DNA of 20,000 nt. It comes from Neolecta irregularis DAH-3. Lineage: Eukaryota. Shown here in pieces: positions 3,905 through 20,000 of the stretch; position 1 is the first letter of the stretch, and every line of letters starts with the position of its first letter. The notes under the pieces are model-generated. The model saw only the letters and a list, made by a program, of their open reading frames with translations, did not search any database and was not told where the DNA came from. The position numbers and the translations under genes were made by a program. The DNA lies in contig LXFE01000243.1 of NCBI GenBank assembly GCA_001929475.1, forward strand, positions 48,888-68,887. The letters run 5' to 3'.

Positions 3905-6900
3905 TCATACCTTCCCAGTCTTGTCCATGTTCATACCAACACCCTTATCCTGACCGGAAATCCGTGCAAGTACAACTTTCATCTTTTCTAGTAATTCAGG
4001 AATACGGTATGGTTTTGTCACAAAATCATCCATTCCAGCAGCGATCATTTTATCGATTTGTTCTTTTCGAGCGTTGGCACTTACCGCGATTGCAGGTACA
4101 TGACCGCAAAGTTCACCTTTTTGTTCCATTTCGCGAATCTTACGGACGCATGTTATTCCATCCATGACCTTTTTGGTCAACTCTAAATAAAGAAAGGACA
4201 AAGTTTTACCGGCATTTCTACGTCAACAAGACAGATATCCAGAGGAAAAGCATCGTCCAGGGCACTACTCCGGAATTTAGACTTTGCGATTTGTTCGAGT
4301 GCCTCTTGGCCATGATTGGCAACGTATGTTGTCCATCCGATTTGATTCAACTGTTTTCGAAGAATCCGCTGATTAATTACATTGTCTTCGACAATCAACA
4401 CGTGTAGGTCTGACAAGTTTAAAAGAGTGAAATTGTAGCTCGATTGATTTAATTGAAATGCATCCACTAATTTTGGCGAAGTTGAGACTACCGGTAATGA
4501 ATTCATCGATTTATCATCTGGGTTTGATCCACGTTGTGCCACGATATAGAAAGCAAAAGTCGATCCTTGACCTTCTACGGAAGATACTGTAATCTCGCCA
4601 CCTTGAAGTTCAACCAATTTCCGGCATATAAAGAGGCCTAAATATTAGGCGTACTGAGATTTCAAATATACCAAGTCCACTACCACCATACTTGACATGA
4701 GTCTTTGGGGTAGCTTGCATAAATCTTTGGAAAAGGATTGCCCGTTCGCCCTCTTTAAGTCCAGACCCTGTATCCGTGACCGAAAAAATTAAATATATCG
4801 GGTTCTCGACTAGTATAGTGCATTGGTTGATCGTCGAATCCGGAAGTGAAGGTCGTTCGGTTGATGCGCTAATGTTGAGTTTGATTAGCCTATGTGGTCT
4901 CTTATCCGTGAATTCTAAATAAATAAGTTCATAAAACTATAAGGAAATTGTACTTATGGCGTTTGTAAACAAATTGATGAGAACCTGATTGAATCGACTA
5001 GGGTCAGCTTTTACCCAACAGATACCTAATTCAGTATAACTTTTGTCAAAATCCAACTCAGATGCGATTTGCTTCGACTGTAATTCTGCCTCAAACATCT
5101 TCAATACCCCTTCCACACATTCCTTTAGCTGGAAATCGACAGGTGTAACTAACAATAAATTTGAATCGACTTTAGATAGCGTCAATATATCATTGGTAAT
5201 TCGTCTCATATGTGTTGTGCAAAGAACTATTGTTTTCATATCTAAAATATTTTCGTTGACTTTCCGAGCGATATCGATTGAAGAGAAAGATTTACGAGAA
5301 GATACCATTTGTAAAAGATTGTGTAGGCTCTCAACGACAAAATCGACCGTCTGTATGATGGCACCGAGAGGATTTCTCATTTCATGGGAAGTCATGTCGA
5401 TAAAATATTCCTGTTGCCGTTTCCGTTCAATTCTTGATGTCAGAAGGAGGCACATGGATGAAATCTTACGCTTCTTCAGCCCTCTTTTGTTGATATTTTT
5501 CTGAGTTTTTTCGTTCAGATACGTTCATTATACAACCGGTAACTCCTATTATTTGACCATGATGGTCATATTCAGGTGCTGAAGAAGCGATTGTCCATCG
5601 TTCTTTACCTTGGTATGGGGTCTTCCAACGATATTCTAGCCTTCTAAATTTTCGTGATTAGTATGCTTTGGAAGAAACGAACTGCTGCTCTCCACGGAAA
5701 CACTTTTCCCAACTTGACTTTACTAGCTTCAAATCATCCGGATGTATGCTGTCCATCCATTCTGTTAATGGCTGGGATTTTGGGTTGCCAGAAATTTCCG
5801 ACCACGCTTGGTTGACGTAAGATAATGCTCCTGATGAATCGGCTATGTATATTCCAGCAGGACAAATCTCTGCCATGCGAGTGAACTTCATTTCTGATTG
5901 CTTCAACTCTTTTGTTGTTTGAGCTAGCTGCCTTTGCAACTCGATGCCATTTTGACGACTGAGTTCAGTAATTTCGTTGACTCTTAGGGATAAGACTGAT
6001 GATTTAGCGGGAAGGGCATACCGTTTGACATCTTCTTCGAAGAGTTGTACTCGACCCATTCCAGTTGCCAGTTGTCGTGACAATAACTCTAGAAAGATTT
6101 GATAAACTTCATCAAAAGGACGTCGAGGATTCAAGCCCATCATCAACATGCCGCTTGGCCGATCGCCTTCATTTGCAAATATTGGGTATATGACAGCTCG
6201 TTGAACCGGAATATCCCACCCTCTCCTACATTGATCCGACCCAGCACAGAATTCCTCAACGTTTTCGAATAAAACATAAGAAATGGATTTGTGTGCGGTG
6301 ATGTAGTATTCTGCAAGAGGGGATGAAGCATCTATAAGATAGGGTATCAAATTATGGTTAGAGGGAAGTCCTATCGATGCACTGAGGACAAAACTGAGTT
6401 GCTGGATTTTATAGATACAGGCGAAAGGGATATCGTAAGGATTGGAAAGCAACGATTCAAGCGCTACCTGATAAAAGTTATCGGCTTCCTGGGCGGTGGC
6501 TAGAGGATCACTAATGGACTCGCACTCGATATACCTGCCATCTGCCCGAGATTTCTCAGTGTTTGAATATGGCGTTCTGCGATTACTCGCTTTGTACTAT
6601 CGAAAGCAGGGTTCAATAGCCCGCCGACTTTTCCGTCTGGATGCAAGACGGGAACAAGGCTCCATGAAAAATAGCATTCTTCGAGGAACCCGTGACGATT
6701 TATGAAGAGGAGATCGTCGTCTTTGGTAGAAGGTTTGGCGTTGTAGAATGCATTTTCCATTGTCTCTTCCATAAGTTGCCAGATCTGCAGGGCTATCAGC
6801 ACTAGACGTCTCGTATGGCTAGGCTACCTCTGGCCAGCCCTCGCGATAGAGCTTCCCTAGAAGGGATGGGTGTTTTTGGGCTGTTAATTCAGTGTATGGC

Positions 6901-7427
6901 TTGTTGTACAGGATGACAAGGTCTTCTCCCCAGTACAAAGCGGTTGGAAAGGGACAGGCGAGGACGAAGCTGCATATTGTTCTGAGGGCAATAGGCCACT
7001 CGCTGGGATCACCTATGGAGGTATTTGCCCAGTCCACGCTTTCCAGCAGCTTTATGTGGTTTTGGAATGCCTGCGACTGCTTATGGAGGTTCACTACGCT
7101 GGGGAACCCTGTGCTCTCCGCGGGTTGGGTTTCGCCAGTGACGATGCTCGAGCCGCGCACCAGCGTCTTTGTCCACCGAATCTGCGAGTGATGAGCAGCG
7201 AATAGCCCTGCAGGCGTGGAATAGTGCACTGGCGACATTTTGTCGAACAGGAAATGTGCAAACGGGTCTGACAGCGCGACCAACGAAAATATGCAGGATG
7301 CGCCCAGATATTCTTTGAACCGCGGGTTCGAATATGCCGTGCGCTTAGTCGTGCCGCACACAACCAGCGCAGGCACCGGAAGTGCATCCAGATATTCGAC
7401 CAGCAGCAGATCGCAAGGCCCGTGCAT
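3905..7427 (-). CDS. Hybrid sensor histidine kinase (PAS-GAF-PAS-HisKA-HATPase-REC), about 1071 aa, resembling fungal group XI HHKs
   Basis: Nine exons (7427-6828, 6784-6535, 6499-6022, 5982-5683, 5643-5470, 5432-4954, 4914-4672, 4637-4210, 4168-3905) total 3216 nt in frame. H-box DMTSHEMRNPL, N-box QVLINLFTNAIKFT, G-boxes DTGSG and GGSGLGL, receiver VEDN...DVEMPVMDG...TKP. Confidence 0.93.
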
Positions 7428-7618
7428 TTGCAGGACTGGCGCTAGAAAAAAGAATTTTTTTATTGCGGCTTAGAAAGGATGGCAGAAGGCAAAAGGGCGA
7501 TTCGGATTTCGGTTTCCTCGGGTTCGGCGCGACCCCGGCGGGTGATTATAGGGTAGGGGCAGCGCCACTCCCAAACCTCGAGGTGCGCCCTTTGATCCAA
7601 ACCATTCCACACAAACGC
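7428..7618. promoter_or_regulatory. Short divergent (bidirectional) promoter region between the histidine kinase and the RnpA-like gene
   Basis: Only 191 bp separate the two head-to-head ATGs. Contains an A/T tract (7445-7462) and a GC-rich core. Confidence 0.5.
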
Positions 7619-8553
7619 ATGAATCCGCCATTTATTCTCAAAGGCATCCCCGCATTCCAGGGCCTCGAGCGTTTTTTTGCAATGCCCTCGAAAATCCGCA
7701 CACCTGCTTTTAGCCTCCGCGTCCGCTTTCGCGACCCCAGCGACAAAAATCCCGTTCGAGTCTTGGTTGTCGCCAGCAAGAAACAGATTTCAAACAGTGC
7801 TGTTGTCAGAAATCGTGTGCGGAGGAGGATAATGGAGGCCGTACGAGTCTCCCTCAGAGAAACAAACCTCTCTTTTGTCTTTGGTGTGCCATCCATCTTC
7901 GTCCCTCTCGTTGACCCGCAAAAGACTCTCCACGTGATCTTTTCTTCATCTCGCTCGTTGAAGTGTATTCCATGGAGTGGACTGCTCTGCTTCACTATGT
8001 CAGAAATGCAATCGTCCAGACGGAGACGCAAAATCCCAACCTCACAAGACGTGTGACGTTGCCTAGCCGTGTAACGTCGCGCAACCAAAAGCCCGTGCCA
8101 AAAGGACAGGAATCTCTGAATAAAAGTCCAGTAAAACACAGATCAGAGTCGATAGACTATGTCATGACAAACTGGGCTAAACCGTTCTCCTCATATTTTT
8201 CCAACAAACCAGAAAAATTTAAACCTCGTTCTCCAGGCGACTTTAATTGTACTAAAAGAGACCGGAATTGTACAAATCCATCTCCGGAGCCACCTCAAAG
8301 ATACGAGAATACGGAAAAACAGATCTCCAGGTCATCACCAGGAAAAGAAAGATCACCACCTAAACAAACAGAGACACTGCAATGGTCCAATTTTTCTCGT
8401 TCAAGTAACACAAGAGATCAAAACGATAGCCATATAAGAAACCTCGACTCACTGTCTCCGCACTGGGAACAGCCTTCCTGGTCATGCAAAGGTCCAGAAA
8501 ATATCATGAACATCCTCAAAAGAGGAACAAGGTCACAAGGAAGAAGAGACTAG
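7619..8553 (+). CDS. Bacterial-type ribonuclease P protein (RnpA-like) domain with long low-complexity C-terminal extension, about 297 aa
   Basis: Exon 1 (7619-7883) encodes RVLVVASKKQISNSAVVRNRVRRRIMEAVR, the RnpA RNR motif (K...AV.RNR..R...E). A 41-nt GT-AG intron (7884-7924) joins it in frame to DSPRDLFFISLVEVYSMEWTALLHYVRNAI, consistent with the final RnpA strand and helix. An S/P/R/K-rich tail follows to TAG at 8551-8553. Confidence 0.8.
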
Positions 8554-8989
8554 ACTTAGCAAGATCTTGTCTCGTTCCCCAATCAAGGGTTGGAAAAATT
8601 GACATCTTGCTCATTATTTATCTACTGGTATAAAAGCGAAATTCTGGCGTTTACCGCCACATCAACCAAACAGCATGTGGGGACTTAATAATGTCCCATG
8701 ATCAGACAGCACCGGCACTCCTCATCGCAAACCACCATGACTCACCCAGCGATTCAAGGCTCACTGACGTCAATGCTGATCAAAACTGTCTGACTGTGGC
8801 AAACAGTACCACCGAGTCAATTCAGGACGGTCACAAGCTTCGCCACTCGAGAGGTATGCAGGGAGGCAAACAGAGATGAGGAAGCGCATGTGCCAGTTCT
8901 TCTATCAAGCCAGGCCAAACCGGAGCAAGAATATACGTAGTTGTCTTTATTTCCTGAATCGCGATCGTATATTCCCAGCGAAGCCTCCT

Positions 8990-9960
8990 GGGAGGCAAGT
9001 CCGGACACCCAACTCTCCCACAGCAGTCTGTTTTTTTGCATGAAATTACCCTCACAACAACATGCAGCAGTATCAAGCGAGATAATTTCAAAACTTTGCT
9101 ACTAGTAACTCGCAAGGAACTCCCAGTGTAAGGATATACCCAATCGGTATACCTAACCAATACAGTAATCAGGCGTTGGTAGAATATGAAGCGGAGTTCG
9201 TAGTGATACCTATCCTGACTCACAACATTTAGACTAGAAATATATCCTGGTCTTATTTGTAATTTCTGGCGATAAGCTTACACCCAGTTCCAGAAATCCC
9301 TCTCTTCACCATGGAATTGCAAAAAACAGTAAAGATGCAAAATATCTATACGTTGGTGTTCGTGATCTGGAAAAGCCAGGTCAATGTCTAATATTTACAC
9401 CGAATATGTTGTGCTTGTCCTTCAAAGACTCTTTCAGCGCGGTTAAGCGGTAGGCCAATTATCCTTTTTTGTGGTTCCGATGAATGTTAAAACGTCCACT
9501 AGAATCTCTATTCTAAAGCACTCAAATTAGGCATTCTGGGATGTAAGCTTTCTCCTACTTATATATCCCATAGTCAAGATCCGAAGCCGAGCTTATTCAC
9601 GCAGAGAATTCCAGGAGTGGAAATACCTGCTCATAACCAAAGACCCGCCGATACCCCGGGAATAAACCAGTCGCAGATGTCGTCGAATTGATATTTGGCG
9701 CAGCTTACCTTAGCGGTGCAGTTGAAGAAGGTTTTCATGTTGCGTAAGTGTTTGGGTTATCAGTGTCTGGTGCTGGTAATTTTGAGTATCTTGGCGAAAC
9801 AGCTGGCATTATATCCTTATGGTAATTTAATCGGATACTTTGTAGTTAACGCGACAAGGAATACGTCAACTAATGTAGGCAAGACTTGAGCTCGGTGATG
9901 ATACTTGAACTCTAGCCATATTTCTCTTTCATAACCCAAACTATTCAAATGCCCAGAAGT
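8990..9960 (+). pseudogene. Dicer-like pseudogene (platform, RNase IIIa and RNase IIIb remnants), LTR-disrupted and internally deleted
   Basis: Collinear fragments: VFLHEITLTTT...FKTLLLVTRKELP[solo LTR]VPEIPLFT (platform-like, 9030-9310); NLYSKALKLGILG (from 9503); NKPVADVVELIFGAAYLSGAVEEGFHVA*VFGL (from 9661, RNase IIIa end with in-frame TAA); NLIGYF (about 9824) and RLE-LGD/ILEL (9882-9912, degenerate RNase III signature with indels). Boundaries approximate. Confidence 0.8.
9127..9282 (+). mobile_element. Solo LTR (156 bp), LTR retrotransposon
   Basis: Termini TGTAAG...CTTACA with a perfect 5-bp TSD CCCAG (9122-9126 and 9283-9287). Similar to 11849-12042 and the fragments at 17590-17970. 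Strand is relative to the family consensus. Confidence 0.88.
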
Positions 9961-10076
9961 AGGCCTACGATATACAAACGTTCCCTATTCTAAAATAAAT
10001 TATTCCTACAAAAAGAAACTTGCCAGCAGCAGGCTTGAAAGTTTTACAAGTGACGTCCATTCTGTCTCTTAGAGGA

Positions 10077-11651
10077 CTAATGAATCAAAAACCTAAACGC
10101 AGGGTCCTTCAATGCAAAGTGCCATTTGAGAGCATCCAGAGTCGGATCAAATTTTATTGCTTGACCCAGTCCCTTTATGTCAATATAAAAGAACTCTTCG
10201 TCATTTCGATAATATTTAGCAGGTAATTTGTATCGACCATGACTTGGGCAATTGAGGCATTGAGAAATTCGATATTTCATAAGTGCCTTTTGCATTTGTG
10301 AATCATATCCAAAGTCCGAGGGATAAAGCATGTCGACCTCGATCCATTCCATCTTCGGACAATGATAAGCTAGCAAGATGAAAACTTCGATGTCGAAATG
10401 AAATGGCCCTGTCGAAAGATTCTCAAGCTTTGTACAACCAATAAGAGATTTCAAGGATTTTGCCTGAAAAAAACTCTCTTGACTATTGAAAGAGACCGCT
10501 TTGAGATCTTCCAACTCTCCGAGGCGGTTGATCCAAACTTCCGGGAAGTCGAAATACGGGCCGCACATGATTTCGATGATTTCGATACCGTTATTGGCAT
10601 GAAGTAGAGAATGACAGAGATTCTCAGCACTGTCTATTGCGCCGACTGTGAATTTACGAAGATTTGAATGAGTTATCACCCACGGGATTTCCCGAGTGGC
10701 CTCTGATAATATGCAGGAATAAATTTGAAAAGTCTGCAGGCATGGTAGCTGCAACAATGTCTCACGAATATCGGAAGGAAACGTAATACTAAACAAGGAA
10801 AGCTCTTTGAGAGTATTTGCAACGCTCTTTAGTTCTGGGAGGTGAAGACGACGATCGAAATCATGCATGTCTCGACCGAGATGTAACTCCATCAACGACG
10901 ACGAGGTAGTAATCTCCCTAGTATCTTCATCATCCTGGCTCCACCAGACCCTTGCTATTTTCAAATTTTCTGAATTTTGAATAAAGAGCTCGATCCGGGC
11001 TTCCGGATATTCAATGTCGATTGAGATGACCTTCTTCGTAAGGCAACCTAGAAACGACCAAAGTGCTTGTCTTCCGGCAGGTGTATTGAGTGGATGCCCT
11101 GATATTGTTGTCCAATGCCCAGAAGAGTGAGAAGCCTTCATAACGAGTTTCACGGTCTTTATATTGGAATTGGATATATAGGACGCAAGGTTTTGCCATT
11201 CGACGAAACTGCGATTATAAAAAGGTCTATGCATATATCGAGCAGACCACAGTAGTTCTAGATCGATGTGAGTGATTCTTGGCAAACTTCGTAGTAACTG
11301 GATAGCTTCGAAAGTTGATTCGGTAGTAGGGAGTCCAAAATCATGAAAATAGGATAACGCGATTCTATTGACATAGGTTTCGATGTCCGACCTGTTTGCG
11401 AGCTTCCGAAGATTCAAAATGTGACGGTGATTGTGCAGACCTCTGTGCATATAGTCATGTGTGGGCCTCCTGAAATGACGAGAGATATCTGCCCAAAATA
11501 CGCGCTTGGTGAGATAGTGCCATTCTCTGCAGACAAGACGAACTGAGCATACGTCAAGGAGATCGACGCTCTCCAGGATAGTGCATTTCAATTCGACTGG
11601 CAGTTTGGCGAATGATAAGTTGTCTTCGATAATTCCATGATTACTGCACAT
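10077..11651 (-). CDS. F-box protein with LRR/RNI-like C-terminal region, 524 aa, intronless
   Basis: N-terminal F-box FAKLPVELKCTILESVDLLDVCSVRLVCREWHYLT, followed by repeated LxxLxL segments (TLKELSLFSI, LPCLQTFQIYSC, CTKLENLST, CPKMEWIEV). Confidence 0.85.
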   Translation of the reverse strand: MCSNHGIIEDNLSFAKLPVELKCTILESVDLLDVCSVRLVCREWHYLTKRVFWADISRHFRRPTHDYMHRGLHNHRHILNLRKLANRSDIETYVNRIALSYFHDFGLPTTESTFEAIQLLRSLPRITHIDLELLWSARYMHRPFYNRSFVEWQNLASYISNSNIKTVKLVMKASHSSGHWTTISGHPLNTPAGRQALWSFLGCLTKKVISIDIEYPEARIELFIQNSENLKIARVWWSQDDEDTREITTSSSLMELHLGRDMHDFDRRLHLPELKSVANTLKELSLFSITFPSDIRETLLQLPCLQTFQIYSCILSEATREIPWVITHSNLRKFTVGAIDSAENLCHSLLHANNGIEIIEIMCGPYFDFPEVWINRLGELEDLKAVSFNSQESFFQAKSLKSLIGCTKLENLSTGPFHFDIEVFILLAYHCPKMEWIEVDMLYPSDFGYDSQMQKALMKYRISQCLNCPSHGRYKLPAKYYRNDEEFFYIDIKGLGQAIKFDPTLDALKWHFALKDPAFRFLIH

Positions 11652-11848
11652 GACATCCAGTTCGTGTGTCGAACTTAGCGGGTTGGCCCCGTGAGAATAG
11701 CTGGAGCTGAGGAACGAGGTGGTGGGTGCCGTCGGAAGTCAAACTCATGTTGTTATATTAGGACCCTGATAGTGCGTAGGGACTTTCGCAGCCACAAATC
11801 TTGCCGGAGTTCCGTCCCGAGAATTGCTTAGGAATGCGCCAAGCCAAC

Positions 11849-12042
11849 TGTAAGGATATGCCCTTTGGGTATATATTACCAATACGGCAAGGTGGCTTGG
11901 CGGGAAGTATATAGAGGCGGAAGTTAGATATTCCTAGCCAATTACGAATACTTAGGCTAGGTATGTCCCTTTGTAAGAAGTACGAATACTTAGGCTAGTT
12001 ATAACACTTGGTCTTATCGTACTTCTAAGCGCATAGCTTACA
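11849..12042 (+). mobile_element. Solo LTR (194 bp), same family as 9127-9282
   Basis: TGTAAG...CTTACA termini with a perfect TSD CCAAC (11844-11848 and 12043-12047). Internal direct repeat TACGAATACTTAGGCTAG at 11943 and 11981. Confidence 0.88.
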
Positions 12043-12446
12043 CCAACTATCTAAGCACCTTGCACATCAAGTACCCAGCACTACTAGAATACTTCCAACC
12101 ACGTTCAAGTCGGGAATCATTGCACTTATATCAGTTTAATGGATTTATTTCTTACTATATCATTGCATTCCCCATTGGGATAGCACTCGCTTTCATGGCA
12201 GGAGTTAATAACTTCTGAGTACTTGGATTAACGAGGAAGGTGGGGATTGTACGGATTATCAGGTGGATTCGCTTTGGCTCTAACATTGTAAGTCACTCAA
12301 ACCTCCAATGGTTGATCTCTTCAGAGTTGCAACAGCAAAAGTATTTGTAATAAGCCGTACAAAATGGGGAGCCCTAGTACGTAAAGTTGAAGATCGTTCG
12401 CGAGAAAGCGAAGAAAATGGAGATTTAGAAAGACCAGCTGAGCTGA

Positions 12447-14223
12447 TCATTCAACTAAATGCCATTGATACTCCAAAACTCCATCCCTTTTATATCTTAC
12501 ATTTTCCCTTAAGCTCTTCTTCTGAGAAATCCAATCATGGTCTATTTTCCAATTTACTCTTCGAGCTAGATCACAGACGATCTCATCGCACGGACCAAGG
12601 AGGCAGACGTCAAAATTCATATGTGTCACAGGCGTTTTTGAAATATAAATTTGCGGAATCATAGACAATATTCCAATCGTTTCGGCCACCGGTGAAACCT
12701 TTAGTGATGTTCCTGTTGTCAGCATTTGTTGAAAGTGAAGATACCTATTGCGATTAGGAGATCGGCTTTTTGTTTGTCCTTTTGGTGGAGAGTATCAAAA
12801 AATTCCAAGGGAAGATTCTCGTGGAAAAATATGATGTCAGGCTGGTGAAGTCAAGTCAAGCTCGATACCGGACAGAAATATACTTTCATAACACCCTGAG
12901 ATCGCTCCTCTTCTTCATCACTTTCATTCTTCCTTTTTCTTCTTTTTCTTTTCATTTTCCCATTGGCGTGTTCCCGCATTGTCTTGGTACCTTCTTTAAT
13001 GCACGCTGGGTTCGAGCAGTATGCAACAAGACCTGCTAGTATATCCCTTTCTATTTCCTTTCCAGGGACCTGTTGATGACACTGCATGCAAGAAGCGGTA
13101 GCGAAAGACCCGTGACATTGTACAATCTTCTCTCGAGGGAGACCACTTTTAAATTCCAAGTTATCAATATTCTGGGTGTAAATCCGTAGCAATTTGTGTT
13201 GTTCATAAAGGACGCGTAGGAAGGCATGCGTTGGGCTTACCCTTTCTGTTTTGGGATATATTTTGTGGGCATAACGATAGAAAAGTCTTCATGTTATACC
13301 TTGGTATTAGGCAGAGGATACGTTGGATCCTGTTTGAATATATCATAGTTGAAGATTTCCTGGAATCAGTAGATTCAGACTGGAATAGCACTTGAGGATC
13401 TTGAACTTCACCGGAACCAGCGACATCAGCATAAATACCACGCGAGCTTCGAAAATCAGGAATTCCGAGGCTTGTGCTGATACCTAGATTGGCATAAGAA
13501 AAGTTCTCTAGGAATTATTAAAGACCTGCACCTACGAGAACAACAATGTTCTTGCAGCGTTCCAGTAGTTTGACAACGTCGTCTGGCGTCCGGTATTCCT
13601 TTATTCGATCTCTTTTCCTCAGTTCTCGAAGAATCAGTCTTTTGAGCATCCTTTTGAGACTAAGTGTGTTTAGTAAACTTTATCAGTAAATTACGTACTC
13701 TGTCTCTTCAAAATTCATACAAGATTCAAACTAATTCATGAGCATGAGACTAATGGGTTAGATGCCATGTTATATCCGAAGGCGCTGAACAATTTCAAAA
13801 TCGGGATTTCCTGTTCTTTTAAGTGGTAATCCAGAAATTCCTCCCATTTTAGATCGCGCACTTTACATCTGATGTCAGTGGCCTCTTCCTTGGTGAAAGC
13901 CTCAGGATCTAAATGAATTCAGCCGGAAGAGAGATATTACGATAGGCTATACGATCAACAGTTTCGGCGGGATCGCCCAGATTTTCGACCAAATCATCAA
14001 CATAGGTGTTCGTGGACACATTTGACTCAGTGTCCGAATCTTCTGGTGATACTGACTTATACCTCTTGTGAGAAGAAGAGTATTCGCAGCTCGAATTAAT
14101 TTGGGATCGCTTGGAAACCTGGACGGCAGTGGAAAGCGAGATATTCGAATCGGGTGTTAGATGCTCTCTTGTAGCGAAACCGTTTTCTTGCAAAGGTCTT
14201 TCTGTTCCGGTATTGGAAATCAT
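12447..14223 (-). CDS. SIR2: NAD-dependent histone deacetylase, Sir2/Hst1 (class Ia sirtuin)
   Basis: Spliced motifs: [59 protein letters not shown] (catalytic His, Zn), CSNPAC, GVMKPDIIFFHENLP, GTSLKVSPVAE. Eight short introns; 13731-13765 is GC-AG and the first donor is ambiguous. Confidence 0.92.
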
Positions 14224-14518
14224 TTAATTGCAATGAAAGTATGGGAGTAGAGAATTTGCAAGTACAAATTTGTCGTACGTTAACGCGAACCACAAACAAT
14301 GACAGGTTGTTTTTTCTTCAACATTTTTTTAATGTGAAATGTTTTTAGTTCTCTATGACCCGATTGATGAGCATCTAGTTCTCTTCGGTTCTCCATAGAC
14401 CAATTGTTTAGCATCTCATAGTTTAGGTTATGTTGATAGAATTTCGATCTACATGCTGGGATATTCCGTGAAAACAAAGGAATTAAAGGTGATCACGGTG
14501 ATATATGCCGAAAATTTT

Positions 14519-15092
14519 TGTTTGAAGTTCGGAGAACATGTGTTTGCCATATGATTGTGGTGTCCTCTAAAAACCTTATGTACAGCAAGCTCTTCCGAGT
14601 TGCTAAAACATTGGTAGCACAAGATATCCAAGCCTTAAATCCCTTCTTACAAATTCCAACATTAAGTCGTTGAGTAGTCATGCAGAGGTTTCGCTGCTTC
14701 AATATCGATTGCGAACCTTGATGTTTTATCATGGTAGAGCTAAATTCGAACCTATCCTCGCAAATCCGAGTCTGAAACCGAACCCGATAAAGAAAATTCA
14801 CTGAATATTGATCATAGAGAACAAAACCTCAGACTAGTCTTAGCGGGAAAAAACTGACTCTGGAATTCACAAGTCTTTTCCTTTCAATATTCCTGGTTTC
14901 TTTGGACCAGACTATCGTGGCCACTGCTCTCCCAGTAATTACAAGCCGACTTAATGCTTTGAATCAAGTCTTTTCATTATTCTCCAATCTAGCAGCAATT
15001 GATCTATACGATTGTCGTGTTTAAAGTTGGGAGAACATGGGTTTGCCACGCAATTTTGGTGTCCTCTGAAGATCCTCTACACACCAAACTTG
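14519..15092 (+). repeat. Tandem partial segmental duplication of the DHA2 upstream region
   Basis: 14519-14590 resembles 15019-15092 (GGAGAACATG.GTTTGCCA...TGGTGTCCTCT), and about 14625-15014 resembles about 15475-15852. Confidence 0.75.
14731..15014 (+). pseudogene. Truncated, frameshifted duplicate of exon 1/intron 1 of the downstream DHA2 transporter
   Basis: Aligns by eye to 15566-15852 (identical block TTTGGACCAGACTATCGTGGCCACTGCTCTCCCAGTAATT). Small deletions give early TGA stops; the splice donor is lost and the acceptor TAG is mutated to TAC. Confidence 0.85.
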
Positions 15093-15565
15093 TCGCGACG
15101 AACGGTATGGTGTTCTTTCATCTTACTTTCTAGTCTCACTTTCCGGTTTCGATTTGCCTTTTCGAGATATCTAGGGATGCCCTGGTCTCTCTTGTGACTC
15201 AGCTCTTTATTTTTTCAGTTTCTCCCCTCGATCATAAACTTAGAGGGAGCCTTACAGGAAACGTCTATAAAAGAAGACTGTTTTCTCCTTATTAGATAGC
15301 CAATAGTATTCCCACTTTCAGTACTCGATCTCTAAGATACTGGAAAGCCCTCTACGCCTGTTATAGAACTACTTGTTCTGCTCACCTAAAACTTCGCTAT
15401 TAACTTGACCTACAATCTGTGTGTATCGAAGTATTCCGAGACCGCCGAAACATTGCTTGAGTAGCACGAGGCGTGCAAGCCATATATCCCCTTTTGCCAA
15501 TCACAATTTACAACATACGCCTTTGACACCGCTTCTTGTTCGATCGCGAACGTACATTCTTTATC

Positions 15566-17467
15566 ATGATAGAGATAGATTCCAACTCTGCCTCTCATAA
15601 CTTTCAGTCTGAAACCGAAACCGAGAAAGACAATTCCCGGAATGTTGATCGTAGACAACAAGATCTCAGACTAGTCTTATCAGGAAAAAAACTGGCTCTG
15701 GCATTCACTGGCCTTTTACTCTCAATCTTGCTGGTTGCTTTGGACCAGACTATCGTGGCCACTGCTCTCCCAGTAATTGCAAGCCAGTTTAGTGCTTTGG
15801 ATCAAGTCACATGGTAACTCTTGAATCTAGCAGCAACTGATCAATAGGATTGCCTCTGCATATTTCCTGACACAAAGTGGATTTCTATTGCTCTATGGAA
15901 AGCTTCTAACAATATTCGATCGGAAATGGGTTTATTTAGTTGCTATCATGATTTTTGAAAGTAAGTTCACTCGGCTAAAAAGTTATTCTAATGATTATTG
16001 AAAAGTCGGATCACTCTTTTGCGGAATTGCTATGAATGCTACTTTCTTAATATTTGGAAGAGCTGTTGCTGGGATAGGTGCGGCAGGAATCTTTGTTTCT
16101 TGTATCACAATGTTCGTTCTCCAACTCGGGCCAAACCGAAAACATTAACTCCAGATAGTATCTCTGAGATCACTCTCCTCAAAGATCGTCCAAAGCTTTT
16201 TGGCGCCTTTGGAGCAGTTTTTGGTGCTTCCAGCGTAATTGGTCCTCTCATGGGAGGAGCTTTCACGGATCATATTAGCTGGAGATGGTGTTTCTTCATC
16301 AATGTAATCAACCTTTGCCAAGAAGGAATCTGACAGTAGCTGCCGATCGGAGCGATAACCTTAACGACAGTCGGAATGATCATCAAACGGAACCCCCCAG
16401 AGGGTGTCATATTGTCACAGAAGCTTAGAGAACTTGATTACATTGGTGCTGTCTTGGCGCTAGGAATGATCACTTCCCTTGTTTTACCTCTCCAGTGGGG
16501 TGGAAACTTATATCCTTGGAACTCGAAACAAGTAATCATTTCCCTCTGCTTTGTGGCAGTTTTGATCCCTGTCTTTGCCATCTGGGAAAAGTATGGAGTC
16601 GGGAATGAAAGAGCTATTCTTCCTATGAAATTCTTTTCGAATCGAACGGTGTATGGCATTGAACATACTGTGGTCACTGACCGGTTAGCGTGGCTGCTTG
16701 TATAGAGAATTTTTTCATTTTCTTTGGTTTACTTCTTACGGTCTACTATCTCCCATTACAATTCCAAGCTGTCAAGGTATACAACCGTATCCTCAGCAGT
16801 TTTTAATGTCCAGGGCCACTCTGCAACACAGTCTGGGATCGATATTCTTCCCTATATGTTATCCAATGTTCTAGCAGCTGGAATATCTGGATTTGTAATC
16901 TCAGCTACTGGTCACTATTGGCCGTTCCTGATTTTTGGTCCCTTGATAGTCGCTATTGGGGCTGGATTAATGTATACATTTTCGTATATCTCTACGACTG
17001 CCCAATTGATTGGATATCAAATTATCTTCGGGGCTGGACTTGGATTCGTAATGCAGAATACAGTATTTTCTTTGTTATCTGTGATTTTAACCAGCGAGAT
17101 GATCGCGGTACAGGCAGACGTTGACCATCATGATATTCCTCAAGCTAGTGCTCTTTGCTCGTTTATGCAGTTAGTTGGTGGCGTTCTGGGAATTGCAGTT
17201 GCAGGAACTATTTTCTCTAACGAATTAGTATCTCACTTACAAAGAGTGGCACCGGATGCGCCTTTGGTTGCGATTCAACAAAGTGTCACTGTTATCAGGC
17301 ATCTTGATCCGGCAATGCAGGAAGTCGTGAAGAAGGCTTATGTCCGTGCATTGGACTATGTTTATCTAACCGGCGTACCTGTAGGTATTATTGCAAGCAT
17401 CTGTGGTCTCTTTATTAAGAGACATAATATCAAAGGAAAAGAAATGATGACGACAGGTGGGGCATAG
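15566..17467 (+). CDS. MFS drug:H+ antiporter, DHA2 (14-TMS) family
   Basis: Motifs [15 protein letters not shown] (motif D1), [63 protein letters not shown]. Seven short introns are inferred (e.g. 15814-15847, 15961-16005, 16112-16158, 17063-17098). Confidence 0.92.
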
Positions 17468-17589
17468 ACGAAATCAGCTCCGAGTTTCATATAATACTTC
17501 TAGAGAATGGACATTAATTGTGGGTACAAACTTTCGAGTGACGTCGCCCATAGTCTTTATATACATTTCTATCTAATGTCTTATTTCTT

Positions 17590-17970
17590 TCTCCGCCACT
17601 TGCTGTATTGGTATGGGTATATCTGGGTAATAGCCGGGATATACCCTTACACGCACTATCTTAGAATAGTATACTAGAAATCCTAGTTTTATTTGTGCAC
17701 CGTCGAAATACTTGCAGCGATAGAGCCACAAAGGAATCTAACAATCCGTTTTCTCGGTTTTATTCAAGTCATAAGTCTGCAAAGCTCTACAACTGCAGCG
17801 TCGACGGGCGGTTTGTGTAAGCTTTGATACTCCGGAGTACAAATAAGACCAGGTTTATAGTACTAGCCTAGGTGTTGTATCTCCTAAGGAAACGTACCTA
17901 GCCTAAGTGTTGTATCTCAGGCTAGGTATTCTAATTACATGAAGTTTACAGCCGGCCATACCCTAACCCT
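17590..17970. mobile_element. Cluster of degraded LTR fragments (same family as the solo LTRs)
   Basis: 17590-17651 is the reverse complement of the LTR 5' end (ending CCCTTACA). 17670-17716 resembles the plus-strand 3' end (CTAGAAATCCTAGTTTTATTTGT...CTTGCA). 17816 to about 17970 is the reverse complement of the LTR 3' part (TGTAAGCT...CAAATAAGACCAGG...CTAGCCTA twice). No clean TSD. Confidence 0.65.
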
Positions 17971-18188
17971 GGGTTTGGTAATGATGATATTGTGTGAAGA
18001 ATGTGTTTCATACCACAAACTATATCAATCCTGCAAGGCAAATGAGTCATGGGTCAATTGGCACTAGAATTCTCCAATTGGATTTGAACAGGCTAAATAT
18101 TCCCGTGATCTTTGTATTATATAGAAGGGGGCGAAGAAGGGAATTTTCATTTTATTACAAACTTCAACATCTCAAATTCACATTCGTC

Positions 18189-18605
18189 ATGAGGCTCCTT
18201 GGACTTTTAGTCTGTCAAGCGTTTGTTATTTCGGCTCATCACCAAAAACATCATTACTTTACCATGTCCTTTAATGAACTATACAGCAAGACCTGTGTGG
18301 GTATTAAAGGTGCTTATTTGATACTGGACTCTACTGCCTGTATGACTTTCTTCATCGATAAAGACCATGTAATGCACATGAGTGATCCGAACACTGGCGA
18401 TGATTATGAAATATCAGCGACAAATGACGGCAAGTTGGCAGTTACTCCACTAGGGGACAGCGCAATTACTTGGCAGGAGGATGGATACCTTCTCAAATCC
18501 CAGGGTTTCCTAGAGACGTTCTGCTATTATAACAGCTATATTTATGTCATGACACCCTCCGCAAGTTGTAGTATCGGCAATCTCGTATATGATAACTTAC
18601 CATAG
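18189..18605 (+). CDS. Small putative secreted protein, 138 aa, 5 Cys
   Basis: ATG at 18189 downstream of a TATA-like TATTATATAG (18115-18124). Signal-peptide-like N-terminus MRLLGLLVCQAFVISA; intronless; beta-rich aromatic mature part. Confidence 0.65.
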   Translation: MRLLGLLVCQAFVISAHHQKHHYFTMSFNELYSKTCVGIKGAYLILDSTACMTFFIDKDHVMHMSDPNTGDDYEISATNDGKLAVTPLGDSAITWQEDGYLLKSQGFLETFCYYNSYIYVMTPSASCSIGNLVYDNLP

Positions 18606-18678
18606 TGAAGTTAACTGTTGGAGGATTCTGCTTACAGCATAGTCCTCTGGCAAACGAATAATGACTAACACTGAGGGG

Positions 18679-18819
18679 ACAAACAGAACAATTAGCCCAA
18701 TACACGAATACAGAGCCATATGTTAAATGGGAATTAAATATTTTCTTAAATACCACTGATTTGATTTGTTCACCTTTGTGTCCACCTGCCCACCCACCAG
18801 AGAAATCTGAACCGTGATG
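18679..18819 (-). mobile_element. Integrase zinc-binding (H2C2)-like relic
   Basis: IHHG...AGGHKG-x-FKKIFNSHLTYGSVFVYWANCSVC has H-x29-CxxC spacing typical of retroelement/Ginger integrase N-terminal domains. No DDE core follows. Confidence 0.4.
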
Positions 18820-19299
18820 GATTTTTATGCTGCCCACCTTCACCAAGAGGTCCAAACTATCCACCTGGAAAGTGCTCCAATCTCAATGGTTTTGATACCA
18901 TTAGAAAGCCCTCGTCGAGGCGCATCCGCTCGTGGTAATTACGTTTTCGTGTGATGTGTTTTGAATACCACACTCCCATGTGATACTTCCTCAAAGGTCC
19001 ACATTTGACTTTCTTATATTGAATTTGTTGGCAAACCATTAGTTTCGCCTTTAAATTCCGGTCCCAATAGTGCTTGTTTCGTTTGAATCTGTTGGTTGAT
19101 TGTTCAACTGTGAATCATTTGTTCTAAGTTCTGGTCACAAGATTTGTCATGGATCACGTGACATTGTCATCACTTCAACGTGAACTTTTTGAGTATGTGC
19201 GGCATACTTCACCAACTAAAGAAATGGCCAGATAGAAATCGTTTTATATTAGCAATTTTGGTTATTTAGTGGATTTTGTATTGCACCTATATAAGACTC

Positions 19300-19750
19300 G
19301 CCCGCCCCTCCGGCGGCGGGGATACAGCCTTGTCAGATGGTGGTTGACTGACTTATGGCGGTGGTCGAGTGACCGTGGGTGGTGGTTGATTGACGGCGGG
19401 CAATGGCTGCCGCGAGCACTGGTGCAGCACCAGCTGCCGGGAGAGATAGGGGCGACAAGGTGGATGGCAGTGAGAGAGCACAGGTCAGGGGATCTGGGAG
19501 GACTCTGCAGGTGGGTGACCGGGACAGCAATGCGGAGGAGACAGAGGCTATTCTGCAGGGTTAGTCTTCGTTTGAGCCGGATGAGTGAGTGTCTGCGATG
19601 GGTATGGGCGACAAGGGCGAGCGGCAAGGGCGGAGGGCGGGCGGCGAGGGCGGGCGGGCGGCGAAGGGAGGCAGGCAGTGCTGAGCTTAGCAGAGTAGCG
19701 GGTAAAGGGCGGGGCAGCGGGGCACAGGGTCAGCTTGAGCGCAGGTAGAA
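19300..19750 (+). repeat. G-rich, strand-asymmetric low-complexity tract with G-quadruplex-type motifs
   Basis: Seven G3 runs at 19628-19668 and five at 19700-19729. Much higher GC than the flanks. Confidence 0.6.
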
Positions 19751-19875
19751 GACAAAGTGGAAGGAGAAGATAGGAAATGTATAAAACTATTAGGAGAGAT
19801 TTTAACAAATACATTTACAACGTGGTGAATAATGATATAGGCAACATGATGAATGCCATGACAGATAATTAGGAC

Positions 19876-19885
19876 NNNNNNNNNN
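19876..19885. other. Assembly gap (10 N)
   Basis: Run of N characters. Confidence 1.
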
Positions 19886-19886
19886 C

Positions 19887-20000
19887 CAATTGGCACTAGA
19901 ACTCTCCAATTGGATTTGAACAGGCTAAATATTTCCGTGATCTTTGTATTATATAGAAGGGGGCGAAGAAGGGAATTTTCATTTTATTACAAACTTCAAC
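19887..20000 (+). repeat. Near-identical copy of 18055-18168 (upstream region of the small secreted protein gene)
   Basis: 114 bp with 2 mismatches, starting just after the N gap and running off the window end. Confidence 0.9.

Follow-up and report, generated by a model that had tools for sequence, protein, structure and literature searches.

A solo LTR of a dispersed family in the spacer between convergent RnpA-like and F-box genes of Neolecta irregularis

The locus and its genes

The DNA analyzed here (the window) is a stretch of 20,000 nt from Neolecta irregularis DAH-3 (contig LXFE01000243.1), and all positions are counted from its first nucleotide. Two public runs cover the region: X1, possibly from the source itself, and X2, which carries a different organism label in the same study; the contigs of both were aligned to the window and depth was read per bin. 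The element of interest, a 156-bp solo LTR, sits in a spacer of 1523 bp (8554-10076) between two convergent genes. The features of the spacer and of its borders are the following (with the source of each assignment in parentheses):

7619..8553, + strand: RnpA-like (bacterial-type RNase P protein) gene, upstream (Pfam; X2 splice joint)
7619-7883 and 7925-8553, + strand: exons of the RnpA-like gene, separated by a 41-nt GT..AG intron at 7884-7924 (X2 contig 10)
8821..9017, no strand assigned: further dispersed repeat to the left of the LTR, its limits being approximate (contig depth, contig breaks)
9122..9126, + strand: left 5-bp target-site duplication, CCCAG (read directly from the sequence)
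9127..9282, + strand: 156-bp solo LTR, TGTAAG...CTTACA (sequence; family alignment; contig depth)
9283..9287, + strand: right target-site duplication, CCCAG (read directly from the sequence)
9543..9604, + strand: putative 62-nt intron, GTAAGC...CAG, absent from X2 contig 11 (from the size and variant positions of that contig)
9670..9726, + strand: 19-residue RNase III-like motif, VADVVELIFGAAYLSGAVE (protein atlas, PDB phmmer, our own HMM, frameshift-aware scan)
10077..11651, - strand: intact F-box gene of 524 aa, downstream (ORF; F-box-like Pfam match, E 1.8e-7)

The first exon of the RnpA-like gene matches the Pfam family PF00825, Ribonuclease_P (E 1.4e-8, 35.2 bits for a cut-off of 22.3). 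In X2 contig 10, the record positions 954 and 955 are contiguous and join 7924 to 7882 across the intron. The 41-nt splice is in frame, and the stretch 7616-8553 then reads through 298 residues, or 297 when counted from the ATG at 7619, down to the stop at 8551-8553. On the other side of the spacer, the stop of the F-box gene is at 10077-10079, and X2 contig 11 spans this gene without a gap. The F-box gene is convergent both with the RnpA-like gene and with the + strand transcript of the spacer discussed below. Both genes are live. Throughout the window, most of the frames that look broken are genes with very short introns.

Structure of the insertion at 9122-9287

The segment 9127-9282 ends in a 6-bp inverted repeat of the TG..CA type. 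The arrangement given in the initial annotation, with 156 bp ending in TGTAAG...CTTACA between two copies of CCCAG, matches the sequence exactly. Ends of the TG..CA type with short inverted termini, together with a 5-bp duplication, are a hallmark of LTR ends. We scanned the 20-kb window for such structures (TG start, 6-bp inverted termini, perfect 5-bp duplication, length 100-700). Exactly two occur in the whole window, 9127-9282 and 11849-12042, with the same termini and with different duplications. In shuffled windows, no such structure occurs in 17 of 20 and a single one in each of the other three. Since the window holds two matches and a shuffled window none or one, the structure is judged not to be a product of chance.

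The second match and two partial copies of the same family are found at higher coordinates:

11849-12042 (11844..12047 with duplications), + strand: another complete solo LTR of this family, 194 bp (structure scan, alignment, depth)
11844-11848 and 12043-12047, + strand: CCAAC duplications of the second copy (sequence)
17816..17951, - strand: 3' part of an LTR, fragmentary or degenerate, ending in AGCTTACA, without a matching duplication (in-window comparison)
17560..17651, - strand: truncated LTR fragment, 5' part starting with TGTAAGGGTAT (in-window comparison)

The in-window comparison (BLAST and MAFFT) relates these three pieces to 9127-9282. The pieces have in common a 5' end, TGTAAGG.TAT..CC..GGTATA...TACCAATAC, and a 3' end, CTGGTCTTATTTGTA...AAGCTTACA. 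The longer copies include an internal tandem unit of which the 9127 copy, a short variant, lacks about 38 nt. Of 148 aligned positions, the two complete copies agree at 110 (~74%). The best-known yeast LTRs are longer than both the 156-bp copy and the fuller copy of ~194 bp. The copy at 11849-12042 lies upstream of the F-box gene.

Copy number, boundaries, and divergence of the family

In X1, single-copy depth is about 370-440. Depth rises to 10105 in the bin 8620-9282 (containing the LTR at 9127), to 5708-19700 in two bins of 11272-12597 (containing the LTR at 11849), and to 10440 in the bin 17239-17901 (containing the fragments); in the stretches with LTR copies, contig depth is 10 to 50 times that of single-copy DNA. 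The boundaries of the element are exact. Five X2 contigs start matching precisely at 9127 and are unlike the sequence before that position (flank agreement 0.51). At the second copy, 17+9 contigs of X1 diverge directly after 12042/12043 (flank agreement 0.41-0.44). The initial annotation had made its reading depend on the 156-bp segment having other genomic copies; such copies were looked for and are present in the window as well as in the public contigs.

At ten listed positions between 9181 and 9233, 78-98% of the X1 depth differs from the letter of the 9127 copy, and the X2 contigs carry, at the same positions, essentially only letters unlike it. Because most of the X1 depth differs there, the 9127 copy is taken as a diverged and presumably old member, its age being read from its divergence.

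The identification of 9127-9282 as a solo LTR of a multi-copy family, also proposed in the initial annotation, is well supported: the inverted ends are of the TG..CA type, each of two independent copies has its own 5-bp duplication, and the dispersed copies have unrelated flanks. The element integrated with a 5-bp duplication, and its architecture and copy number point to a retrotransposon origin. Within the 20-kb window, Pfam revealed no full-length element bearing these LTRs, nor any match to reverse transcriptase, integrase, or gag in the repeat-rich stretch 18550-19874 (six-frame Pfam). With no internal retroelement sequence found, with termini inverted over 6 bp, a small size, and many copies, one could think of a small non-autonomous DNA transposon (MITE-like) with short inverted ends instead of an LTR. 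However, inverted termini of just 6 bp and of the TG..CA type, accompanied by 5-bp duplications at two copies, argue against such an element, as does the variation of copy length through internal tandem units, which is common in LTRs. We hold a MITE-like origin to be extremely unlikely and keep the assignment as a solo LTR.

Neither the 3' end of the LTR nor its right flank has a match in a scan of metagenomes. The tRNA and Rfam scans of the whole window give nothing, and there is no cue for targeting to a tRNA gene. A joint corresponding to the empty site (9126>9288) does not occur among the 15 listed of 67 contig joints; X2, which seems RNA-derived (see below), is uninformative on the presence of the LTR.

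Solo LTRs are described as arising through recombination between LTRs (PMC7175516) and, in the reference genome of S. pombe, every Tf1/Tf2 insertion is reported as intergenic (PMC7175516). The element at 9127 resembles the solo LTRs of fungal Ty1/copia and Ty3/gypsy elements (S. cerevisiae, S. pombe Tf1/Tf2, Candida, Cryptococcus), as described in the same source (PMC7175516), in its TG..CA ends and 5-bp duplication. The likeness extends to many dispersed copies mostly without interiors, to an intergenic position near gene ends, and to a probable origin by LTR-LTR recombination. In contrast to those elements, the present family is unnamed and is known here from LTR copies alone.

A second dispersed repeat in the left flank

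The spacer carries another repeat to the left of the LTR, at about 8821-9017. Against an X1 depth of 444 for single-copy DNA, position 8821 has 6031 and position 8991, covered by 27 contigs, has 20025; the X1 contigs of this region break at 8847 and 8962. Two contig joints, 9010>17823 and 9017>12045, link the left-flank repeat to LTR ends elsewhere. The stretch 8821-9017 has no TG..CA-plus-duplication structure of its own and no second copy in the window.

Transcription and splicing to the right of the LTR

Three + strand GT..AG stretches are missing from the X2 contigs: the RnpA-like intron (7884-7924, 41 nt), 18605-18642 (38 nt, a gap listed as a contig joint in X2), and the putative intron 9543-9604 (62 nt). 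In addition, the X2 depth depends on the gene (from 10.7 to 377), whereas that of X1 is flat. Because GT..AG stretches are missing and depth varies by gene, we infer that X2 is derived from RNA, though it is listed as "DNA?"; no RNA run is listed among the public runs covering the region. Alternatively, X2 would represent DNA of organism B that itself lacks the three stretches.

The putative intron at 9543-9604 is placed through X2 contig 11. This contig has 2416 nt, of which the listed piece 9605-11761 makes up 2157 nt. Three of its variants, at 9318, 9453, and 9495, have from_end values of 35, 90, and 48, which fit a second piece 9284-9542. Since both the size of the contig and the from_end values agree with that second piece, the 62 nt between the two pieces are read as spliced out. 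Contig 11 ends at 9284, the second base of the right duplication; such an end may reflect a branch of the graph, the end of the transcript, or a difference between alleles.

To the right of the LTR, the + strand of the spacer thus seems to yield a spliced transcript. In the predicted transcript (9284-9542 joined to 9605 onward), we did not observe any ATG-started ORF of more than 50 codons. A spliced right spacer of this kind, devoid of ORF, fits a transcribed pseudogene, a non-coding RNA, or a long UTR equally well.

Search for Dicer sequences around the LTR

The initial annotation had placed the LTR inside a Dicer coding region. With the element in place, the frame does read ELPV followed by a stop at the edge of the LTR, as had been described. 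Deletion of 9127-9287 joins 8958-9128 to 9288-9388 in a stop-free run of 90 codons, which contains the 19-residue reading of the annotation. The proposed restoration of a frame holds in that the open run does form, but its length is unremarkable: a position chosen at random falls within a stop-free run of at least 90 codons in 6.2% of cases when the window is shuffled and in 37% of cases in the actual sequence. Because such runs are common in both, the 90-codon run is not evidence of coding. The annotation also compared the rejoined frame with a Dicer platform motif; this resemblance is not confirmed, and there is no Dicer-related Pfam match for either 8958-9128 or 9263-9388 at E<=10.

The same outcome is obtained on a larger scale. 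In the three + frames of the whole window, the Pfam matches at E<=0.1 are MFS_1, DUF4748, and Ribonuclease_P only, with none for helicase, PAZ, platform, Dicer-dimer, dsRBD, or RNase III. The Dicer families have no Pfam match at E<=10 in the 28 stop-to-stop pieces of 7915-10100 or in four further pieces, and the models Ribonuclease_3 and Ribonucleas_3_3 have none within 8554-10100. With phmmer against the PDB, three frames of 726 aa each hit no RNase III or Dicer chain. A word-indexed search against longer proteins returned 0 of 80 candidates for 9601-9822 and 0 of 169 for 7915-8550 (E<=10, E<=1). The left-flank piece 8958-9128 is unrecognized by the protein atlas (recognition 1214, no usable match). 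The flanks of the LTR, each searched singly (Pfam for both, the atlas for the left one), show no Dicer match; no Dicer domain is detectable in them.

One Ribonuclease_3 match was considered and rejected, as its span, 7954-8145, belongs to the second exon of the RnpA-like gene. Its E value is 0.0082 over the whole frame (7900-10080 in the three + frames, stops written as X), and no single stretch passes; in the ORF 7915-8550 the match weakens to E 0.096, with 13.9 bits for a cut-off of 27, and is the sole Ribonuclease_3 row among the 28 pieces.

A canonical Dicer has well over a thousand residues. Given this size and the 1523 bp available between the two live genes, a canonical Dicer cannot fit in the spacer. 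The features of such an enzyme are absent: there are no tandem RNase IIIa/IIIb domains and no upstream helicase, Dicer-dimer, or platform/PAZ modules, and the upstream space in which these modules would lie is occupied by the live RnpA-like gene. A search of the literature, limited in extent, met no case of a fungal Dicer gene interrupted by a solo LTR.

The fullest form of the Dicer proposal is that the spacer is a Dicer relic, that the retroelement landed in its platform/PAZ coding region and became a solo LTR, and that excision restores the ancestral frame. The 90-codon open run would agree with this, as would a + strand that seems to be spliced without an ORF, as in a transcribed pseudogene, and the fact that the best natural PDB match of the downstream RNase III-like motif is a Dicer-like protein (see below). 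However, an open run of that length is expected at ~6% of random positions. Also against such a relic are the lack of + strand Pfam matches for helicase, Dicer_dimer, PAZ, platform, a second RNase III domain, or dsRBD, the lack of an RNase III signature region in any frame, and the small space between live genes; part of the left flank (8821-9017) belongs to a dispersed repeat, and the piece 8958-9128 is not recognized. We give this history very little probability and consider an insertion of the LTR into a Dicer reading frame very improbable. With no Dicer domain, 1.5 kb between live genes, and a left flank made in part of dispersed repeat, the placement in a Dicer coding region is not supported, and the element is read here as a solo LTR in a spacer.

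An RNase III-like motif at 9670-9726

A stretch of 19 residues, some 385 bp downstream from the LTR, resembles RNase III. The open piece around it (9637-9744) has 36 codons between TAA stops at 9634 and 9745. In the protein atlas, the signal at 9637-9771 (recognition 3140) has RNase III clusters as its top matches (0.90, 0.90, and 0.88). It shares 161 features where true members typically share 170, and a score of 0.9 is also attained by 4-10% of shuffled proteins. With phmmer against the PDB, the best natural match of 9607-9771 (55 aa) is the Dicer-like 3 protein of Arabidopsis (7vg2_A), at E 0.14, and the 36-aa query gives E 1.5. Designed repeat proteins come first in that search and were discarded as spurious multi-repeat sums.

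For a more direct comparison with RNase III, an HMM of our own was made from 124 domains, namely, E. coli Rnc (K-12 record) and domains cut from the proteins of a probe search. In that Dicer search, done with an E. coli RNase III probe, the 120 matches listed are bacterial RNase III proteins except for a single insect one, annotated as Ribonuclease 3 (P0023). Run unfiltered on 849 six-frame pieces of the window, the HMM ranks the motif piece first, with 9.0 bits (positions 108-127), the next piece having 3.6. The best scores of 20 shuffle sets range from 1.8 to 7.1 bits, and none of the 20 reaches the motif piece. A scan of 8554-10076 tolerant of frameshifts and insertions, with strict gap costs, keeps only the block of 19 residues, with 22 bits, a score reached by 0 of 60 shuffles. 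The block is ungapped and covers HMM positions 109-127 of 152, where the RNase III domain has its C-terminal helix motif (consensus ladtlEAllGaiflDagle). The signal is weak, and after the conserved E one consensus residue is missing. The motif piece was picked for its RNase III likeness, and the shuffle tests carry that selection.

Around these 19 residues, the searches give nothing further. The Pfam RNase III models have no match for the motif piece at E<=10. No piece upstream of 9637 scores in our HMM for the RNase III N-terminal signature with its catalytic acidic residues, and a PDB search of 9366-9542 returns 0 matches. No dsRBD was found beside the motif. Two candidates were set aside. 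Strings in 9400-9540 read by eye as an RNase III "signature" turned out to be two readings of the same nucleotides in different frames, neither of which scored. A permissive frameshift-aware chain ran through the LTR and, being matched by 2 of 100 and by 4 of 60 shuffles, lacks significance. In an exhaustive search of 9607-9822 against 1.84 billion representatives, five matches have E<=0.001; the four that were scanned, all but P0123 (5258 aa), are repeat proteins (fn3, CAP/TIG, and others) without RNase III.

The motif may be due to chance, or it may be the last recognizable piece of a decayed gene with an RNase III domain; a genuine RNase III-derived remnant is rather less likely than not. 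The corresponding proposal for the whole spacer is a decayed gene with a single RNase III domain (an Rnt1/Pac1-like enzyme, a Dicer of the budding-yeast type, or a copied fragment), of which 9637-9771 would be the rest, the LTR and the repeat having come into or upstream of a 5' part that was already decaying. The RNase III-like signal in the atlas, in the PDB, in the HMM, and in the frameshift-aware scan speaks for this proposal, as do the in-frame TAA stops on both sides of the motif and the GT..AG intron just upstream (9543-9604), with no ORF of more than 50 codons across. A gene of 350-600 codons, a size based on the non-canonical Dicer genes of yeasts, would fit the spacer. However, 19 residues alone score, the Pfam models stay silent, neither signature motif nor dsRBD accompanies them, the 1.84 billion representatives hold no homolog among the four matches scanned (P0123 left out), and the piece was selected for its likeness to RNase III. 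On balance, we rate a decayed single-RNase III gene as unlikely and the spacer is better described as non-coding. Non-canonical Dicers are reported in yeasts (PMC7175516).

The likeness of the locus to Dicer and Dicer-like proteins, such as Arabidopsis Dicer-like 3 (7vg2_A), is confined to this one stretch of 19 residues in the C-terminal helix motif. In contrast to a Dicer, the locus is without a second RNase III domain, a signature motif, a helicase, a PAZ domain, a platform, or a dsRBD, and the motif, enclosed between stops, stands apart from the LTR and not around it.

Origin and meaning of the insertion

The most probable history starts with an LTR retrotransposon that would have integrated at CCCAG, its integrase making the 5-bp duplication. 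The element would later have lost its interior as its two LTRs recombined, leaving the solo LTR of 156 bp. The insertion site is the 1.5-kb spacer between the live and convergent RnpA-like (+) and F-box (-) genes, a spacer that also contains a fragment of another dispersed repeat and whose + strand appears to be transcribed and spliced, with no frame of more than 50 codons. The element is most likely an old and diverged solo LTR in a non-coding, probably transcribed spacer, where it interrupts no demonstrable Dicer coding sequence; this last point follows from the position of the spacer between live genes and from its lack of a reading frame of more than 50 codons.

The initial annotation went further and had a retroelement entering a gene of the very pathway that silences retroelements. 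No relic of an RNAi gene is demonstrable here. A weaker form of that idea takes the spacer as the last remnant of a silencing gene of the RNase III/Dicer type, split by the LTR and the neighboring repeat and now dead, though its transcript would still be made and spliced. We regard it as very unlikely. Were it true, a retroelement would have disabled part of the machinery that restrains retroelements.

The loss of RNAi genes is reported in fungi, for instance in Cryptococcus deuterogattii (PMC4778953, PMC8022950; PMC7763443 for background only). The present locus shares with those reports (PMC4778953, PMC8022950) the idea of silencing-gene relics in transposon-bearing genomes and differs from them in that no such relic can be demonstrated at it. 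The insertion would gain importance only if its flanks belonged to an RNAi gene: a silencing gene entered by a transposon would bear on how fungi lose RNAi. As found, the element is one more solo LTR of an undescribed LTR family of fungal type, in an intergenic spacer, and its importance is limited; it is of use for repeat annotation and may serve as an insertion-polymorphism marker between isolates.

Repeats in the window

The solo LTRs of the TGTAAG...CTTACA family (complete copies at 9127-9282 and 11849-12042) are accompanied by a second dispersed repeat at 8821-9017, where depth in X1, a public sequencing run that is possibly the source of the window, reaches 20025 vs. 444 for single-copy sequence. 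This repeat shows neither a TG..CA structure with a duplication nor a second copy within the window, and inverted LTR copies adjoin it at other loci. It could come from the LTR's own retroelement, as a leader or internal segment, or it could belong to a different element.

The stretch 18565-19870 is also highly repeated (X1 bin depths of 8312-15973), with a G-rich, GGC/GGG-repeat-like part at 19300-19760, and a six-frame Pfam search of it gave no match. Many joints, contigs linking two separate window positions, connect LTR ends to this stretch (for example, 12039>19115, on opposite strands). Beyond it, 11 N occur at 19875-19885 and 19887-20000 is a 98% copy of 18055-18168; 19875-20000 has the appearance of a scaffold gap accompanied by a local duplication, or else of an artefact of assembly.

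Near the other end, an inverted repeat (102-178/340-416) has arms of 77 nt that are 95% complementary and separated by 161 nt. X1 depth is raised (1805) in the stretch holding this repeat, which is possibly a foldback element or a MITE-like one. At 14519-15852, direct repeats of 73-170 nt with 77-86% identity, spaced by about 500 and about 838 nt (families D1, D3, and D4), point to local tandem duplication.

Genes and very short introns

A Pfam DUF4748 match at ~926-1009 in a + frame (E 4.1e-7; 30.1 bits, cut-off 27) probably marks a small gene. Two larger genes and three introns are as follows:

3908-7469, -, hybrid histidine kinase (PAS, GAF, HisKA, HATPase_c, receiver domains), interrupted by short introns
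7619-8553, +, RnpA-like gene, spliced
7884-7924, intron of the RnpA-like gene, 41 nt, GT..AG
9543-9604, intron, 62 nt, GT..AG
18605-18642, intron, 38 nt, GT..AG

The two genes are divergent, with start codons at 7427 and 7619 about 190 bp apart, and both are covered by contig 10 of X2, a second public run of the same study under a different organism label, inferred to be RNA-derived. The RnpA-like gene is apparently expressed. Its exon 1 matches Pfam Ribonuclease_P, the bacterial-type RNase P protein family (E 1.4e-8), and is followed by a long tail rich in Ser, Pro, Lys, and Asn. The gene lies within a G+C-rich island (0.52-0.54 across 6500-8000 vs. about 0.40 elsewhere). A bacterial-type RNase P protein is unusual for a fungus-like, intron-rich nuclear genome, and the one here might be targeted to an organelle or might have been acquired.

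The in-frame stops of the MFS, kinase, and SIR2 genes are likewise located in stretches similar in size to the 38-62-nt introns and, because of this, live genes mimic pseudogenes under a naive ORF reading.
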